Shown: in pieces, positions 3,227-26,631 of the stretch
Layout: each line of letters starts with the position of its first letter
Numbering within the stretch: the stretch's first letter is position 1
From: Candidatus Latescibacterota bacterium
GTDB taxonomy: Bacteria; Latescibacterota; UBA2968; UBA8231
Direction: 5' to 3'
DNA length: 64,000 bases
Assembly: GCA_022825835.1 (NCBI GenBank)
Contig: JAJDVZ010000157.1
Location: forward strand, 50,322 to 114,321
Made by a program: the position numbers and the translations under genes
Notes under the pieces: model-generated
Database searches by the model: none
Told to the model about the DNA's origin: nothing
Seen by the model: the letters and a program-made list of their open reading frames with translations, nothing else

Positions 3227-4183
3227 ATGTCCTTTAAGTTCGTCTTTCTGTCACCCGCCCGCGAGCTAGCCGCAGCAATGTCTGAAGCGGTCCCCGCGAT
3301 GGAGATCGTCCAATGCGAAAGCCGCGCCGAAGCCCTAGCCGCTCTGCCCACAGCGCAAGCCTGTTTTGGCACCTTGGATTCAGAGCTGTTGGCCGCGGCC
3401 GTCCAGCTCAAGTGGTTGGCCGCCCCAGCCGCTGGCCCGGCCAAGGGGTATTACTTCCCAGAACTCATCGCCAGCGACGTGGTGGTGACCAATTTTCGCG
3501 GCATCTTCAACGACCACATCTCGGCCCACATCATGGCCTTTGTGCTGGCGCTCTCGCGCGGCATGCACCGCTACTTCCGCTACCAGTTCGACAGCCAATG
3601 GCGCAGCGGAGGGGAAGCGAGTCCCTCGACCTATCTGCCCGAGGCCACCGCGCTGATCGTCGGCGTCGGCGGGATTGGCGCAGAGACTGCGCGCCAGTGC
3701 AAGAACTGGGGCATGACGACTGTTGGCATCGATCCTCGCGTTGAGTCGCCGCCTGCGGGGGTTGACGAATTATATCGCCCGGACAAGCTCGACCAACTTT
3801 TGCCGAGAGCGGATTTCGTCATTCTCACCGTGCCGCAGACGCCGCAGACCGAGGGTTTTTTCACCAGCGCCCGGTTCGAGCAGATGAAGAATAGTGCGTA
3901 CTTCGTCAACATTGGTCGCGGGGCGAACGTCAAGTTGGCCGACCTCGACCAAGCCCTGCGCGAGGGCCAAATCGCCGGTGCTGCCCTAGATGTGTTTGAG
4001 CAGGAGCCGCTGCCGCCGGAGCACCCGCTGTGGACGGCCCCGAACTTCCTGATGACCCCGCACGTGGCCGCGGCCGGTCCTTATCTGAGCGAGCGCCGGC
4101 GCGACCTGATGGTGGAAAATTGCAAGCGCTTTGCTCGTGGTGATGAGCTGGTGAACGTGGTGGATAAGGAGAGCTGGTTCTGA
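3227..4183 (+). CDS. D-isomer-specific 2-hydroxyacid dehydrogenase family, NAD-binding
   Basis: ATG at 3227 preceded by AAAGGAA. Motifs LIVGVGGIGAETAR (GxGxxG), FVNIGRG and MTPHVA are typical of this family. Confidence 0.8.
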   Translation: MSFKFVFLSPARELAAAMSEAVPAMEIVQCESRAEALAALPTAQACFGTLDSELLAAAVQLKWLAAPAAGPAKGYYFPELIASDVVVTNFRGIFNDHISAHIMAFVLALSRGMHRYFRYQFDSQWRSGGEASPSTYLPEATALIVGVGGIGAETARQCKNWGMTTVGIDPRVESPPAGVDELYRPDKLDQLLPRADFVILTVPQTPQTEGFFTSARFEQMKNSAYFVNIGRGANVKLADLDQALREGQIAGAALDVFEQEPLPPEHPLWTAPNFLMTPHVAAAGPYLSERRRDLMVENCKRFARGDELVNVVDKESWF

Positions 4184-4268
4184 GAAAGGGTTGCAAAGCC
4201 CTATCGGCTGTCGCACGACGGCAAGGTATCCGCAGATGAACGCAGATGCGAAATGACGTTGGTAAGCG

Positions 4269-4892
4269 CTAGGGCAGCGTGCCTGTGATAAGCAGGTACG
4301 CGTCGGCTTTGACCTCGCCGTTGATTTCCCACTCCTTGAGTTCGCCGCCGAGCTTCCCGATGACCTTTTCGCTCAGCTCGTGAAAGGGCGGGCGGCCCGG
4401 GTCGGCGATGATGATCTGCCCGACTTCGACCTCGACCGCCTTTTTGATCAGCTTGTAGAGCGGCTTGACCATGTCGTCCCAGAAGCAAATATCGGCTCCG
4501 ATGATCAGGTTGGTTTGGCGTAGGTCTTTCTTTTTCACCTTCTCGAACTTGCAGCGCCAGGTCTCTATTTCGACATCGTTGATCTCAGCGTGTAGCTGCA
4601 GGTAGGGAAAGACCGCCGCGTCCGCGTCCATGCCCGTGACGCGGGCACCGTGGTTTTTGGCGCAGTATATCCCGGCGAGGCCCCAACCGCAGCCTATATC
4701 CAAGACCCGCGCCTTTGGCGGCAGACCTTGGTGCGAGAGGAAGTCCATCACGCACCAGCTCGAGTTCCAGAATTTGTTGCCGTGGATGCAGGGCTCGTGC
4801 TTCTTTTTTTTGGCGCGCACTTGAGGGTGAGCGGCTTTGAGTACCGTGATGCCATACGCTTGGCGCGAGGTTTTCTTTTTTTCTTTGGCCAT
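4269..4892 (-). CDS. class I SAM-dependent methyltransferase
   Basis: 207 aa with motif I VLDIGCGWGLAGI and a post-I acidic residue (VTGMDAD). Confidence 0.7.
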   Translation of the reverse strand: MAKEKKKTSRQAYGITVLKAAHPQVRAKKKKHEPCIHGNKFWNSSWCVMDFLSHQGLPPKARVLDIGCGWGLAGIYCAKNHGARVTGMDADAAVFPYLQLHAEINDVEIETWRCKFEKVKKKDLRQTNLIIGADICFWDDMVKPLYKLIKKAVEVEVGQIIIADPGRPPFHELSEKVIGKLGGELKEWEINGEVKADAYLLITGTLP

Positions 4893-4931
4893 GTCGCTCT
4901 GTTATTTCCCACCGGGAAGTTAGTTTTCTCG

Positions 4932-5711
4932 TTAGAATCCCCACACGCGCGCCGCGGTCTTCCCCATGACCCACTCGATATCATCGCCGTCGGCAAAGGC
5001 TGGATGCTCGATGACGGCGCGTAGCGTATTGGCGTAGCCCTCTCTGCCGGCGCTGGGCGGGAAGTCGCTGCCCCACATCATGCGTTGCACGCCGAATGCG
5101 TCCTTGGCCATCTCGAACAGTGGTGGTACGTGGCCGAATTCGAGTTCGGGGAGCAGGCGCGGCGGGCGGGCGCAGATTTCGCCTAAGCCGGGGACTTTGA
5201 TGCTGGTGTTGTCGCGCTCGCCGTGTTGCAGGGCTTTGGCGTAATCGGCGTAGGGCGGCTCGGCAATGCCCACGCCTGCGAGGTGTTCGAGGATGACGTG
5301 TGTGTCGGGGCACGCATCGAGCACGCGCGAGAAGTCGCCGGCAGCGAACTGGGGTGCATTGCCGATGCTGGAGACTACGAGGCCGAGTTCGCCGGCTCTG
5401 CGCCACATGTCGTAAGGGCCTGCGTTGGCGAACTGTCCACCGGGGGCGATGCGAACACCGGCGGCCCCTTGCTCTGCGAGTTGCGCAAGATCGCCGAGTG
5501 GATCGCAGGACTCGGGATCGACGAGGACTGCAATTTTGAAACGGTCTGGTCGCTTGGCGGCCTCTTGGAGGAGGTAGGTGTTGTCGTAGGTGCCGCCGTG
5601 TTGGATGAGGGCGGCCTTGTCAACGCCGTTGCGATCCATCTCGAATTCGAGCGTCTCGATAGGCTCGAACCAGTTGTTCCCGGCGTGGCAGTGCGTGTCG
5701 ATTATCAGCAT
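4932..5711 (-). CDS. amidohydrolase-family (TIM-barrel metal-dependent hydrolase) protein
   Basis: 259 aa with N-terminal MLIIDTHCHAG (HxH metal motif) and a C-terminal WGSDFP motif. Confidence 0.75.
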   Translation of the reverse strand: MLIIDTHCHAGNNWFEPIETLEFEMDRNGVDKAALIQHGGTYDNTYLLQEAAKRPDRFKIAVLVDPESCDPLGDLAQLAEQGAAGVRIAPGGQFANAGPYDMWRRAGELGLVVSSIGNAPQFAAGDFSRVLDACPDTHVILEHLAGVGIAEPPYADYAKALQHGERDNTSIKVPGLGEICARPPRLLPELEFGHVPPLFEMAKDAFGVQRMMWGSDFPPSAGREGYANTLRAVIEHPAFADGDDIEWVMGKTAARVWGF

Positions 5712-5840
5712 TTGAAGCGGCCTTTCAAAGAGGTGTTTGTTAATCGCACTTCGTTATTTTCGCACAGAAAGTGGACGTACTACGCGGCTGTTTCAGCACT
5801 GAAACAAGCGAAAGGGCAAGGGATTTGCAAGCTGGCAGGA

Positions 5841-6260
5841 TCACCCTACGAATGACTCCTCGCCTCTTTCCTTCTGTTTCTGCCTTATCTCGGCGATTTC
5901 TTCGCCTGTCAGACGTTCTTCGTCCGTTACAATAGTTTGTTCGATGAGTTCCAACTTCAATTCCCGGTTAGTCAGCCACTCCCAGCGATCGGCATTTGCC
6001 GGGTGGGGATGGGGATACACATCCTCAGGCCCAATGTCATCGGAGACGACATAGAGATAACCGGGCGTGACGCCGTTGTGCTTAATTCTGAGTTTGTCAG
6101 ATAGAGACTCCCCTTCGTCAGACATAGAAACAATTGATGGTCTATGCGAGAACGCTTTCGCCACATTTCTATTCTGTGTGATCGAACTCCCGACCCGCAG
6201 TTTCGTCAGCTCTTCCTGAGAGCCGTGATACCACGTAAGGCTGTAATCGCAGTTTGGCAT
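5841..6260 (-). CDS. hypothetical protein (139 aa), first gene of the A/T-richer patch
   Basis: Clean ORF. Its ATG overlaps (TAATG) the stop of the relic FMN-reductase 3' end. It has an N-terminal WYHGS motif but belongs to no family I can name. Confidence 0.55.
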   Translation of the reverse strand: MPNCDYSLTWYHGSQEELTKLRVGSSITQNRNVAKAFSHRPSIVSMSDEGESLSDKLRIKHNGVTPGYLYVVSDDIGPEDVYPHPHPANADRWEWLTNRELKLELIEQTIVTDEERLTGEEIAEIRQKQKERGEESFVG

Positions 6261-20109: not shown

Positions 20110-20640
20110 TTACCTATTCAGCACCTTTTCCTGAAACTGCTCGTACGCCTCATATACGTCTTCTGGATCGGGAACAACCGGCATTGTGCGAATCCGACCG
20201 TGTGCATACCAATTCCGAAACCCGAAGTATCCCTTGGTCACCGAGCAAACCCGCCGAAACGCCTCGTCGATGTCTCGGAAACATTCTCGTAACTTGTCGA
20301 AGATCCGCTCAAGGGGAATCCGCCTACACGCCTGAGTAGCCTGTTTGCCAACTTGACGGGTCTCACGGCGATATTCCGCACACAGATCGCGATACGCTCT
20401 GCTTACTCTATCGCGCTTTTTTCGTTATAGAGATACGAGAAAATCCTCTCGGATACCTGCCTCCAAGAGCGTAAGGAGCTTGAACGCGTAGTCCTTGCGT
20501 ATCTCCTCAAGCAGGTCGGCACGAAACTCATCGCGCTCAGTCGGTGTGAAAGATTCGAAATGCTCGTCGCCGAGGTCGCGCACATTTTGTTGGAGCAAGA
20601 CGTACCATTCGAGGAGCGAATCACAAGTGAACTCGCTCAT
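20110..20640 (-). pseudogene. HEPN-like (R-N-W-Y-A-H) protein gene interrupted by one in-frame TAA (20425-20427)
   Basis: The frame from ATG 20640 reads 71 codons to a TAA, then stays open for 104 more codons to TAA 20110-20112. The second half contains GYFGFRNWYAHGR (an Rx4H motif) and no internal ATG. Confidence 0.65.
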
Positions 20641-20642
20641 TT

Positions 20643-21107
20643 TTACTCTTCTAGGAACTCAGCTAGAAATTCCTCTAAGGTGCTTTTATTGAATTCCCAC
20701 CGTGTAGGTTTCCCGTATCTACCCTCTCTCTTCGCAAAGTCCCACTCGTCATTTCCTTTATGCAGCAGCATTGCGAGCAGGGTGCTGCCCGAGATCACAT
20801 CGACTCGCCCTTGAGTACCTATAATAAAACGTCCGACTGGTCTGAGGGTGAGTATCTGGCTATCTAAAAAGATAAGTCGTAGAGATTGGGCTTCGTAATC
20901 TCCAAGCTGGTCTTCCCGAATCGGAATATTCTCTGACTGGATTTCCAGCCAGTTTTTGTCTTTAAGAGGCTGTAACCACTCAGCTATCTTCGACATGAGC
21001 TTTTCGCAGTTGGCTATCCATTCCTGACGAACTGCTACATGTTCAAATTCCGACGCTTCCTGTTGTTCTTGTTTCTGCTTCAGTATGTCCTCAAGTAGTT
21101 TGGCCAT
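20643..21107 (-). CDS. hypothetical protein (154 aa), upstream operon partner of the HEPN-like gene
   Basis: Strong SD (AAAGGAGAG) before ATG 21107. Its stop lies 2 nt before the HEPN-like ATG. I recognise no family. Confidence 0.65.
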   Translation of the reverse strand: MAKLLEDILKQKQEQQEASEFEHVAVRQEWIANCEKLMSKIAEWLQPLKDKNWLEIQSENIPIREDQLGDYEAQSLRLIFLDSQILTLRPVGRFIIGTQGRVDVISGSTLLAMLLHKGNDEWDFAKREGRYGKPTRWEFNKSTLEEFLAEFLEE

Positions 21108-21250
21108 TTATATCTCTCCTTTGCTGCAATTTGAACGAGATATTGTCTGCCGTCCAAGACCGAGACCGCACGGTTAGCGGTAAGGCAGTACGCTTTCTCA
21201 ATATCCGACCGATTGGATTGCTTCGCAATGGTCGGACCGCCCCCCAGCTC

Positions 21251-23566: not shown

Positions 23567-24625
23567 TCAGCGTATCTGCCCGCGGGCGTCAACCGGCCAG
23601 ACGGCTTCCACGCGGTCGCGGCGTACGGCAAAGATCTGGTCGTGTTCGTTGAAACAGGGGCAGGGATGAACCGGCAAGACCTGCACCTGCTCCCCGATTT
23701 GGGGTTTGTCGTCGCAGGCCGACAGATCGACATGTCCGTGTTCTTCCGAGGCTCCGGAGAACACGGCTTGGGGGTACTCGACGATATGGCCCATGATGGA
23801 CGCGCCATCCTCCTGACGGTGGACCGCGGCGCTGAGCGACTTGCTGCCCCCGTCGAGGATGGCGCGGTCCGCGGTCGGTCGGCTGACCACGGTCATCAGC
23901 ACCCGACCTGCACATTGTTCGACGCTGTGGGTTCCCCGGCGGAGATGGCCGACGCCGCCGACAGGGTACTCGCCGGCCCGGTACTCGGTCAGTTCGGGAA
24001 TCTCGTGCGCCATAAACGCGCCCGGAGTGCTACCGCCGCTGACGATGGGATGCGGCAGGCCCTTGCGGTCGAAGTGCGCGAGCGTCTCTTGGATTAGCGG
24101 CCGCATGTCTGGAGTCGCTGGCATGGACATGATGCCCCGGAGTTCGATGTTGGGGGCTTGATCGATTTTTTCGCCGAGGGCTGCCGCCGCCCCAGGCGAG
24201 CCTACGCCCGTGCGGCCGCGGTCGAGTTCGACGACCACGCCCACGGTGACATCCGCTGCCGCAGCGGCATCGGCTAGCCCCTGCACGGTGTACTCGGAAT
24301 CGGCCGCCACGGTCAGCCGGGTGTCCCGAGCCAGCGCGACCAGCCGCGCCAGTTTTTGCGCGCCGATGATGTTGTAGGGAATCAGGATGTCGCGACCGAC
24401 CCCGCCCTCGGCCATGACCTCGGCTTCCCCTAACTTCTGGCAGGTGATGCCGATTGCCCCGCGCCGCATTTGCATATGGGCGATGGCCACGCACTTGTGC
24501 GTCTTGATGTGGGGCCGCAGGCCAATGCCGTGCTCGTCAAAGTAGCGTTGGTAGCGGTCGAGGTTGTCCTCCAAGCCGTCGAGATCGACGAGGAGAGCGG
24601 GCGTGTCGAGGTCTTCTATGCGCAT
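23567..24625 (-). CDS. D-TA-family / alanine-racemase-N-domain PLP-dependent enzyme (D-threonine aldolase / D-serine dehydratase-like)
   Basis: GLRPHIKTHK carries the PLP lysine motif. ATG 24625 follows AGGAAAGG; the track ORF starts at 24676. Confidence 0.7.
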   Translation of the reverse strand: MRIEDLDTPALLVDLDGLEDNLDRYQRYFDEHGIGLRPHIKTHKCVAIAHMQMRRGAIGITCQKLGEAEVMAEGGVGRDILIPYNIIGAQKLARLVALARDTRLTVAADSEYTVQGLADAAAAADVTVGVVVELDRGRTGVGSPGAAAALGEKIDQAPNIELRGIMSMPATPDMRPLIQETLAHFDRKGLPHPIVSGGSTPGAFMAHEIPELTEYRAGEYPVGGVGHLRRGTHSVEQCAGRVLMTVVSRPTADRAILDGGSKSLSAAVHRQEDGASIMGHIVEYPQAVFSGASEEHGHVDLSACDDKPQIGEQVQVLPVHPCPCFNEHDQIFAVRRDRVEAVWPVDARGQIR

Positions 24626-24903
24626 GGTGGCCTTTCCTGATGGTAATTTCTGGTGATCAATGTCTAGGATTTGCATCGTAAACGCAACGAGTACAAGCTG
24701 CAGGAAAGCTGGAACACGGAGACCATACAGCTAATTTGCCGATTTGACTATGTTCAAAAGGAATTATATTACTTGACTAACGGACCAAAACTCCCTATTC
24801 AATGACTTTTGCTGTACCCAAGGACACTGCAGCGGGCGAAACTATCGCCAATCAATCATCTGACCAAAGAGGCAACCGAGTGATCCACTATCTGGATTGG
24901 TAA

Positions 24904-25416
24904 ATGCTGGATTTGAACGAATTGGACACTGACGACATCCCCGGTATCTCACGAGCAAAGGGTAACGAGTTGGCCGAAGCTGGAGCCGTTTGCCTAGAAT
25001 CTCAGGGTCATACACCAGGTACTTGTCTCACTATTCGTAATGACGCTAACAACAGTTATCGGCTAGATTGGCCGCAGGTCACTGACCAAGTCCGCCGGAC
25101 TTGGAATGACGATGAGGAAGCTACCGAAGACGGTGCTGCCGGCATTGCTGTCCTACTGGCAAGTCGGGAAATCGGTTACACGGTTGTATTGCGTTCACGA
25201 AAGGGTACTGGATTCGATTATTGGCTCGGGGACGATGCACTAGACTTTAAAGCAAGGATGGAAGTGTCCGGCATCCGAAATGGTAATGATGGCCAAATCA
25301 AGACAAGAGTGAAACAGAAATTGCGCCAGATGAATCGGTCGGATGATCAGGAATTACCGGCTTACGCAATCGTAGTTGAATTCGGGCGGCCACTTACCGA
25401 AATAAAAAAGAAATGA
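24904..25416 (+). CDS. hypothetical 170-aa protein with a PD-(D/E)xK-nuclease-like motif pattern
   Basis: E75 (ATEDGAAGIAVLL), D105 (GTGFDYWL) and E120-V-S (ARMEVSGI), followed by a K/Q-rich helix. Codon usage looks A/T-richer. The ORF is ATGA-coupled to the next ORF. Confidence 0.6.
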   Translation: MLDLNELDTDDIPGISRAKGNELAEAGAVCLESQGHTPGTCLTIRNDANNSYRLDWPQVTDQVRRTWNDDEEATEDGAAGIAVLLASREIGYTVVLRSRKGTGFDYWLGDDALDFKARMEVSGIRNGNDGQIKTRVKQKLRQMNRSDDQELPAYAIVVEFGRPLTEIKKK

Positions 25417-26543
25417 ACTCAGTTAATGATCTCCACAAAAAAGCTATGGAATTCGCAGACCTCGGTCTCAGAAGAAGGGCGCGTGGCAATGCGGAAGAAT
25501 CCATAGAGTATTTTGAGCAGGCACTTCACTATGAATTGGCTGCCATTGACGAGCTTGACAAAACAGAGGCGTTGGCTTGGTCAGTGTTGCATCGCAGCGC
25601 TGGTACCTTGGCCTTAGATTGCAGGGACTTTCTCCAAGCCGAGAAAATAGTAGCCACTGCTCTGGCGCAGGAACCGCATCCAGAGGTTGCGGAGGAGTTG
25701 CGCGACCTTTTGGAGCAGATTTACTTCCAAAGGCACCTCGATCTGAAAGGCATTACTTTGCAGGAGGATGAGATTCAGTTGAGTCTCTCAGGTCAAGAAG
25801 TGGGGAATGGTTTTGTCAACGTGGAGGAAATATATGAGCGTATCAGCAACTCGTCGAAACTGATTCACCGTACCATTGAGCGAAAGCAAGACCGGCCTTT
25901 TCGGGAGAGAGGGCCTGCACTAAAAGCAATACGGGAAAATTACCAGACGCTGGTTTCTGTGCCTAGGACCGGGAGTTTCTCAGTGACGCTTAAATTCAGC
26001 AGGCCACAACTATCTTTTTCGGGAATGCTCGAGACGACTGCTATCATCGATGAGTTCATGGACTTACTTACATTGATCAACAGCTCCCACATCATCGAAA
26101 TACAGAAGCGCATTCCTGACCCTGCTTATCTGCGGAACTTCTTTGGTTTGGCAAAAAGAATTGCGCCCGATGGCGAACGAATCAGTCAGGTGGGTTTTAC
26201 CGCAATTCGTGACGGAGTACAACGTTCTGTAGGGCTTACCAAGCCAGCGGAGGAACTTCCATCACTGCCGCCAGAAATGTTATCGTCGCCGCAAGTCGCG
26301 CTGAAGCAGACTCCAAGCGAACCTATAGAAATACGCGGGGTATTACGCCACGCGGATGCGATGCGCGAAGATAGCAATGTCATACAAGTTATTGATGGCA
26401 AGAAAAAACACATCGTACAGGTACCAAAGGGCATGATGAATGACATCGTGCGCCCCATGTGGGATTCGCACGTGATAATACAAGGTGTAGATACTGGCGA
26501 ACATATCATGCTGGAGGACATCCGGCTAGACGACTCAGCTTGA
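25413..26543 (+). CDS. hypothetical 376-aa protein (helical TPR-like N-terminus, beta-rich C-terminus)
   Basis: Clean ORF overlapping the upstream stop by 4 nt. I recognise no family. Confidence 0.6.
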   Translation: MNSVNDLHKKAMEFADLGLRRRARGNAEESIEYFEQALHYELAAIDELDKTEALAWSVLHRSAGTLALDCRDFLQAEKIVATALAQEPHPEVAEELRDLLEQIYFQRHLDLKGITLQEDEIQLSLSGQEVGNGFVNVEEIYERISNSSKLIHRTIERKQDRPFRERGPALKAIRENYQTLVSVPRTGSFSVTLKFSRPQLSFSGMLETTAIIDEFMDLLTLINSSHIIEIQKRIPDPAYLRNFFGLAKRIAPDGERISQVGFTAIRDGVQRSVGLTKPAEELPSLPPEMLSSPQVALKQTPSEPIEIRGVLRHADAMREDSNVIQVIDGKKKHIVQVPKGMMNDIVRPMWDSHVIIQGVDTGEHIMLEDIRLDDSA

Positions 26544-26631
26544 GACCGCTGGCTTACCTCACGTCCTTTACTACCTTCCCAATCCCGCCACAGAAATTGA
26601 CGCGATTCGGTCCCTTGCCTTTTGTTGCAAG

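Follow-up and report, generated by a model that had tools for sequence, protein, structure and literature searches.

A horizontally exchanged two-gene cassette of Candidatus Latescibacterota and its reading as a putative toxin-antitoxin-like module

The cassette and its empty sites

The 64,000-nucleotide stretch of Candidatus Latescibacterota DNA analyzed here (the window) contains two overlapping genes, A and B, which together with a leader form a cassette placed among ordinary metabolic genes. The cassette is accessory and horizontally exchanged. Its functional core consists of A and the N-terminal domain of B (BN); since BN is constant after A and the parts downstream of it vary, the rest of B is exchangeable or dispensable. 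Sequence searches support the view that the A and B families are undescribed. On balance we lean towards a toxin-antitoxin (TA)-like, possibly abortive-infection module in which A would be a nuclease toxin.

An earlier note on this DNA described two plus-strand open reading frames (ORFs) overlapping by ATGA, and both are found exactly where it placed them (Table 1). It also called the leader A/T-rich and the two genes A/T-richer than their surroundings, and this is borne out by the numbers. The GC content is 0.493 in both A and B (0.46 and 0.52, respectively, at third codon positions, GC3) and 0.445 in the leader between 24677 and 24903, as against 0.61-0.65 (GC3 0.74-0.80) in the genes flanking the cassette. 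In high-GC hosts the GC content of A-B is 0.06-0.14 below that of the flanks. The upstream neighbor is a minus-strand D-TA-type pyridoxal phosphate (PLP) enzyme with the families Ala_racemase_N and D-ser_dehydrat. Downstream follow DUF4416 (E 1.3e-51), a prpC-like citrate synthase, a prpB-like PEP_mutase/ICL protein, and adenylosuccinate synthetase; the identities proposed for the flanks (D-TA-family PLP enzyme, DUF4416, prpCB) thus agree with the profile matches.

Relatives were gathered by anchoring on the downstream DUF4416 gene, which gave 23 close Latescibacterota whose flanking proteins are 78-99% identical. A-B lies between the PLP-enzyme gene and DUF4416 in four of these, while in the other 19 the two flanking genes are directly adjacent, in most cases with a gap of approximately 81 bp. 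Including the window and one further carrier (L003; L numbers denote individual loci), there are six carriers and 19 empty sites among 25 Latescibacterota genomes. When three empty-site loci (L206, L193, and L199) were compared to the window by blastn, the homology ended at 24640 and picked up again at 26579; the limits 24677-26631 given originally are replaced by those in Table 1. A neighbor-joining tree built from the flanks shows the six carriers dispersed, the nearest neighbor of each being a genome with an empty site. The cassette thus segregates as an accessory allele and is not a clade trait, and it has probably moved between lineages via recombination in the conserved flanks. Conserved synteny with the same neighbors across relatives had been named beforehand as an observation that would speak against an acquired element. 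Four syntenic species were indeed seen first, but this picture was overturned by the 19 relatives with empty sites. The proposed horizontal acquisition holds, given the empty sites, the scattered carriers, the GC shift, and the occurrence of the family in at least 12 phyla and on plasmids. Among the carriers dN/dS is 0.30 for both A and B, which indicates purifying selection; it is looser than that on the neighboring genes (0.08-0.11), with dS being similar.

An identical site with identical boundaries in scattered lineages, and one filler sequence common to the empty sites, is also what a selfish homing-type element would leave, with A as a site-specific endonuclease of the restriction-endonuclease (RE) fold that spreads the cassette into the empty allele. 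We regard this as highly improbable. The family sits at many unrelated sites with no common target, there is no intron or intein context, and recombination through flanks that are 90-97% identical explains the scatter equally well. Moreover, a homing endonuclease needs no obligatory BN partner. The ends of the cassette show neither terminal inverted or direct repeats nor a target-site duplication, and it contains no integrase.

The leader is 88% conserved over the four syntenic species and holds a conserved TTGACT-N17-TATTCA. A search of it for a consensus sigma-70 site, an Rfam family, a palindrome, and a stable RNA fold gave nothing.

Table 1. Coordinates of the cassette and its parts in the window (AF2, AlphaFold2 model)
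Feature	Position	Strand	Basis or remark
Whole accessory cassette, 1,938 bp	24641-26578	+	Replaces approximately 34 bp of empty-allele filler
Leader, presumed A-B promoter region	24641-24903	+	Also upstream of the divergent D-TA gene
Gene A	24904-25416	+	ORF of 170 aa
Product of A: N-terminal domain of approximately 66 aa and RE-like core; predicted metal-dependent nuclease (toxin/effector)	24904-25416	+	AF2, Foldseek, conservation
A/B start/stop overlap, ATGA	25413-25416	+	Sequence; read as translational coupling
Gene B	25413-26543	+	ORF of 376 aa
BN, B residues 1-112, TPR-like helical repeat; predicted A-binding neutralizer	25413-25748	+	AF2, linkage, decay
BM, B residues 118-290, alpha/beta middle domain	25764-26282	+	AF2
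BOB, B residues 300-376 and stop codon, OB-like five-strand beta-barrel	26310-26543	+	Foldseek, weak Pfam match

Some further observations concern the site and its surroundings. The ORF of the D-TA-type enzyme as listed starts at 24676, within the cassette. Its first 17 codons are spurious, since they are cassette DNA and cassette-free relatives start at 24625, where the true start Met codon (MRIEDLD) is found. A third allele exists at the cassette site in two of the empty-site relatives, L199 (approximately 5812-6000) and L204 (approximately 5816-6000), with about 105 nt of extra DNA just upstream of DUF4416 that contain a duplicated 'CTTTTGTTGCAAG' motif. This suggests that the intergenic site occupied by the cassette in the window is a small insertion hotspot. 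A second low-GC trough is found at 20250-21250 and contains a minus-strand orphan ORF of 154 aa (20643-21107; GC 0.458, GC3 0.48) without any Pfam match. This ORF is also present in L003, L192, L199, L200, L204, and L214 and as a fragment in L202; it was not detected in other close relatives, in some of which it may fall beyond the fetched range. It is probably another accessory gene.

The gene products and the conserved A-BN core

The AF2 model of A has a predicted local distance difference test (pLDDT) score of 96.6 and a predicted TM-score (pTM) of 0.92. It shows an N-terminal domain of approximately 66 aa followed by a helix (residues 70-90), three strands (93-97, 106-111, and 114-124), a second helix (129-149), and two more strands (153-159 and 164-169). 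The order of the core, alpha-beta-beta-beta-alpha-beta, is that of RE-like nucleases. From the letters and their translation the earlier note had picked out E75, D105, E120-V-S122, and a K/Q-rich helix, and had read them as a helix-strand-strand-strand layout. The residues are at the positions named and are invariant or at least 90% conserved, and the model puts them on the core, with E75 in the first helix, D105 starting strand 2, and E120 within strand 3. Across 110 divergent homologues D105, E120, G123, and R135 are invariant, while C30, H36, D69, E75, Y106, W107, S122, K139, Q142, and E159 are conserved in at least 90%. The extra N-terminal domain has its own conserved residues (C30, H36, and W56). 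Judging from the alignment, R135, K139, and Q142 on the helix after strand 3 are candidates that may complete the predicted site.

Foldseek searches of A against PDB and BFVD gave match lists consisting mostly of RE-fold nucleases. Among these are tRNA-splicing endonuclease, the SPARDA nuclease domain, CinB, Cas4-like ACE1, lambda exonuclease, RecU, HincII, phage endonucleases, and Holliday-junction resolvases. None of the matches is individually significant (best E 4.9e-3, TM at most 0.44), and PDB sequence searches with three profiles of the pair returned, apart from single CTPR repeats, nothing beyond chance matches (trehalase and xylanase). The nuclease-like fold proposed earlier is thus backed by a confident model and by the content of the match lists, but not by any single match; since all Foldseek matches are weak, the RE-like fold of A is probable only.

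A dead RE-fold protein, which together with B forms a non-toxic regulatory or nucleic-acid-binding complex or acts as a housekeeping repair factor, would account for Ser122 in the place of the (D/E)xK lysine and for the lack of significant likeness between A and any characterized nuclease. We find this quite unlikely. D105, E120, and R135 are invariant, and E75, K139, Q142, and E159 near-invariant, in homologues that are only 38-52% identical, which is the pattern of an active site. RE-fold enzymes in which Lys or Glu has been relocated, such as Cfr10I and BamHI, are also known. The presence/absence polymorphism, the multiple copies, the pseudogenes, and the plasmid carriage rule out a housekeeping role. 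Confident matches of both proteins to housekeeping families had been named in advance as counting against a defense or toxin function; neither protein matches any family in Pfam, NCBIfam, PADLOC, or PHROGs.

The AF2 model of B is less confident (pLDDT 79), and a Foldseek search of B against PDB gave nothing at E 1e-3 or better. BN forms five helices over residues 3-111. Its resemblance to tetratricopeptide repeats (TPR) is suggested by sub-threshold matches to Pfam TPR models (E 0.1 for the window and 1.2e-5 for L073), by a match of the BN profile to a single repeat of designed CTPR proteins in the PDB sequence search, and by Foldseek matches to TPR proteins in PDB, the best of them at E 1.6e-3. 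The middle domain, BM, gave no match in Pfam, PDB, or Foldseek and is missing or replaced in about half of the family loci. The C-terminal BOB domain is beta-rich over residues 304-372 and resembles the OB domains of CusF/SilF, RMI, PolD, and LysRS in Foldseek (E approximately 1e-2, target TM 0.56-0.67); a weak match to OB_HELZ2 in Pfam (E 0.039) points in the same direction. From the modeled fold BOB possibly binds nucleic acid. A TPR-like beginning and a beta-rich end had both been anticipated for B, although the tail measures approximately 70 aa and not 90.

Domain hidden Markov models were made for A, BN, BM, BOB, and an alternative protein called X and run on all fetched loci, the A-anchored sample being the best 80 of at least 479 loci. 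A gene containing BN directly follows A in all of the 90 unique A-anchored loci, so that homologous pairs co-occur throughout the A-anchored sample. An overlap of 4 nt is the modal A-to-BN junction (55 of 93), and the distance matrices of A and BN correlate (Mantel r = 0.61 for 105 pairs; permutation maximum 0.15). What comes after BN differs. The window type, in which A is followed by BN, BM, and BOB, is found in 44 unique loci; in 21, A is followed by BN alone (110-145 aa), and in eight by BN and then X, a separate conserved protein of 250 aa. The other 17 have BN with other C-termini, BN and BOB without BM, an extra BN, tandem arrays, or fragmented genes. The large sensor or regulator originally proposed as the partner of A is in this respect reduced to the approximately 110 aa of BN.

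X is present in L025 (8923-9681), L027 (9094-9843), L041, L047, L048, L052, L054, and L065, and is 63% identical between Latescibacterota and another phylum. It has no Pfam or PADLOC match, and it is not a diverged B C-terminus, since hhalign gave a probability of 0.4% for this relationship. In L040 BN is fused to a helix-turn-helix (HTH) domain of XRE type, the match to HTH_3 being sub-threshold (E 2e-4; 21.8 bits, cut-off 23). On a Hymenobacter radiodurans plasmid (L112 7519-8424, WP_133271090.1) BN is in-frame with a complete PglC-like sugar transferase (Bac_transf, E 2.8e-52); this could be a chance read-through fusion or a truly different output module. Tandem A-BN-A-BN arrays are found in L026, L051, and L160.

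The pair had been described as an orphan, but both families are large. There are 1,194 A and 831 B clusters at 90% identity, and an exhaustive profile search gave 2,005 A clusters at 50% identity; among the best 150 of these, A nearly always stands alone as a protein of 170-200 aa. Species-representative genomes from at least 12 phyla yielded no fewer than 479 loci. The hosts include Latescibacterota, Chloroflexota/Dehalococcoidia, Nitrospirota, Nitrospinota, Gemmatimonadota, Thermodesulfobacteriota, Planctomycetota, Binatota, Acidobacteriota, Omnitrophota, Armatimonadota, Chlorobiota, and others. Among cultured Nostocales, homologues are found in Anabaena cylindrica PCC 7122 (on a conjugative plasmid), Nostoc, Trichormus, Dolichospermum, and Aphanizomenon, and plasmid-borne homologues also occur in Hymenobacter and Leptolyngbya. 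The A. cylindrica proteins are WP_015217606.1 (A) and WP_015217607.1 (BN/B). A genome may contain up to 2-3 copies of the module, and tandem duplicates occur.

The statement that neither protein belongs to a named family stands, as A and B have no match in Pfam, NCBIfam, PADLOC v2, or PHROGs. When the 110 divergent A homologues were scanned singly, no Pfam match was found. A check for a known defense system had also been suggested; PADLOC-DB v2.0.0, which does not cover systems described after 2023, gives no family for either of the two window proteins with an E cut-off of 1. Of nine homologues and variants, eight lack a PADLOC family at E up to 0.1, and the ninth gave a chance-level match to PDC-S20 (E 0.016). 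All sources name the proteins "hypothetical" or "uncharacterized", and a literature search did not find the family or its accession numbers described. Sequenced phages practically lack the module; the 50,697 phage records of INPHARED gave no match, and IMG/VR contains only two module loci, one of which is a restriction-modification (RM)-AbiV island that is not clearly viral.

Decay, neighbors, and a possible function

A reciprocal scan was anchored on BN, and 139 unique modules were scored at the domain level. A is found upstream of BN in 64 of 77 BN-anchored loci, and most of the 13 exceptions keep a C-terminal remnant of A directly before an intact BN. Intact A and full BN are found together in 103 of the 139 modules. 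Full BN accompanies a broken A in 18 and lacks A altogether in nine (27 in total), while none of the 139 modules has an intact A without BN. A single locus combines intact A with a frameshifted BN, and in the remaining seven entries BN is partial and A broken or absent. A is thus lost and BN kept, the pattern one would expect if unopposed A did harm and BN neutralized it. In L010/L061/L128, L084, L168, and L113, many of which are long-read metagenome-assembled genomes (MAGs), frameshifts or an in-frame stop interrupt A, and BN is intact. Some orphan BN genes have neighbors with putative identities judged from the N-terminal sequence. In L156 these are a 429-aa XRE-HTH protein and a 568-aa protein resembling a reverse transcriptase (1599-2888 and 3596-5302), and in L164 (4124-5272) an AAA-type ATPase of OLD/Gabija-like appearance.

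The same counts bear on the possibility that the pair is an anti-phage restriction-like complex, in which B would be a targeting or activating adaptor that brings A to invading nucleic acid via its OB-like domain, and A alone would be harmless. Its appeal lies in the OB-like barrel of B, in the variable C-terminal modules, which are reminiscent of the interchangeable sensor or specificity domains known from defense systems, and in the RM, GmrSD, and AbiV genes that adjoin the pair in several lineages. However, a harmless A predicts about as many A-only as BN-only remnants, and 27 BN-only modules were seen against no intact A without BN. About a quarter of the loci moreover have BN only (110-145 aa), with no OB domain or other nucleic-acid-binding part, and PADLOC gave no matches. 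An adaptor function of this kind is therefore judged unlikely.

As for the neighbors, GmrSD overlaps the start of A in L027/L028, and in L109/L064 a D12 methylase, a SacI-like enzyme, and AbiV lie directly upstream. L020 has type I RM genes, PIN/MazE, and insertion sequence elements; L024 has BglII/MT-A70, Uma2, and HicB, and L026 has Uma2 and baeRF. Counted raw over the 115 immediate neighbors of about 58 loci, N6_Mtase is the joint commonest Pfam family (5), followed by DUF499 (3) and by Methylase_S, MmeI, Eco57I, and Uma2 with two each, and RM-type is the commonest family class. These counts are at most suggestive of a location in defense islands. In L021-L023 (4575-5310; a Dehalococcoidia-type genome) a trp operon is broken by a two-gene insert encoding proteins of 160 aa (weak DUF2283) and 87 aa, which looks like another TA-like cassette among core genes.

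Secretion-system families are not among the 25 commonest neighbor families. This is one of the observations that make it very unlikely that the module is an orphan interbacterial pair, with A as a detached nuclease domain of a polymorphic toxin and BN as the immunity protein. A gene order in which a small helical-repeat protein comes after the RE-fold toxin, a BN that outlasts A in the manner of orphan immunity genes, and the tandem arrays would all fit such a pair. A is nevertheless nearly always stand-alone, without a trafficking, PAAR, Rhs, CDI, or LXG N-terminal region, and no Tox-REase or Imm model of Pfam was matched.

The TA-like reading is preferred because the pair is an accessory and mobile cassette with strict A-BN linkage and A-first decay, is carried on plasmids, and occurs in multiple copies. 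It is further based on the XRE-type HTH variant of the partner, which recalls classical antitoxins, on the OB-like barrel in B of the window, and on the RE-like model of A with invariant acidic residues at canonical positions. Purifying selection and the frequent RM or abortive-infection neighbors add to this. Each of the rival explanations fits fewer of the observations, notably the asymmetric decay and the constant pairing of A with BN. The linkage, the decay, and the neighbors also bear out the two-gene TA- or defense-like behavior that was predicted for the pair.

According to this TA-like reading A would be a growth-inhibiting effector, a metal-dependent nuclease with a site formed by E75, D105, and E120 together with R135, K139, and Q142. 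Translation of B would be coupled to that of A, and BN would bind A and silence it stoichiometrically. BM and the OB-like barrel, replaced elsewhere by an HTH domain or X, would constitute an exchangeable add-on that binds nucleic acid and serves either autoregulation or the sensing of a trigger such as phage infection. If B were released or lost, A would be set free, and the outcome would be addiction or abortive infection. The module may accordingly serve plasmid or locus addiction or abortive-infection defense.

Several observations weigh against a TA-like function. The canonical position of the (D/E)xK lysine holds the conserved Ser122, the strand-3 motif being E-V-S, and A could thus be catalytically different or inactive; the structural matches of A are, as mentioned above, individually insignificant. 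The minimal BN partner has no DNA-binding domain, the leader has no operator-like palindrome, and neither a PADLOC model nor a Pfam toxin or antitoxin model matches A or B. The neighbors are mostly ordinary metabolic genes, as they are in the window, L021-L023, and L025. Finally, some of the frameshifts in broken A genes may be errors in long-read MAGs, although deletions cannot be.

A bolder and rather doubtful proposal is that A-BN is the core of a new, widespread abortive-infection family. Here a TPR-like clamp would restrain a nuclease with its lysine off strand 3, and swappable sensors would release it. BM with the OB barrel, the HTH domain, X, and even the sugar transferase would be alternative sensors, each answering different invader cues.

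If the TA-like reading is correct, the module represents a sizeable new TA/defense family, with about 2,000 clusters when grouped at 50% identity and a spread over 12 or more phyla. Since both families are unseen by Pfam, NCBIfam, PADLOC, and PHROGs, genome annotation and defense censuses miss them, chiefly in sponge-associated and other uncultured lineages. The homologues in Anabaena, Nostoc, and Trichormus make the system experimentally tractable. If the TA inference is wrong, A-B is an ordinary hypothetical accessory gene pair.

Comparison with known systems

With toxin-first type II TA systems of the higBA, hicAB, and mqsRA type the module shares two small co-directional genes with a start/stop overlap. 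The patchy spread over many phyla, the plasmid carriage, the several copies per genome, and the frequent decay are also common to both, as is a second gene that outlives the first, and in one A-BN variant the second protein carries an XRE-type HTH. However, none of the TA families in Pfam, NCBIfam, or PADLOC is related to A or B by sequence or profile. The putative toxin is RE-like and does not have the RelE, PIN, MazF, or HicA fold, and BN, the putative antitoxin core, is TPR-like and lacks a DNA-binding domain; a search of the leader gave no operator for autoregulation.

The predicted alpha-beta-beta-beta-alpha-beta core of A is shared with PD-(D/E)xK nucleases such as Hjc, RecU, tRNA-splicing endonuclease, the DREN nuclease of SPARDA, Cas4/ACE1, and lambda exonuclease. 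The canonical metal-ligand positions are taken by three conserved residues, a Glu of the first helix, an Asp that begins strand 2, and a strand-3 Glu. A differs from these enzymes in having no profile matches, in its E-V-S instead of (D/E)-x-K, with R135 and K139 on the next helix as candidates, and in its extra conserved N-terminal domain of approximately 66 aa.

A parallel to the proposed mode of action is offered by the Wolbachia cytoplasmic incompatibility factors CinA-CinB, where a PD-(D/E)xK nuclease toxin is neutralized through tight binding by its cognate partner. A nuclease toxin with a co-encoded binding antidote is what is proposed for A-BN, and CinB is among the structural matches of A. 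CinB is, on the other hand, about four times larger, with two nuclease domains; its antidote gene comes first, its targets are eukaryotic, and there is no sequence similarity.

The module adjoins defense-island genes (AbiV, GmrSD, and type I/II RM) in several lineages, and like them it is compact, low in GC, and variably present. It is nevertheless homologous to no PADLOC v2 model, and most copies are found among metabolic genes and not in islands. What is unusual in A-BN is the strand-3 motif without a lysine and the TPR-like putative neutralizer with its swappable C-terminal modules.

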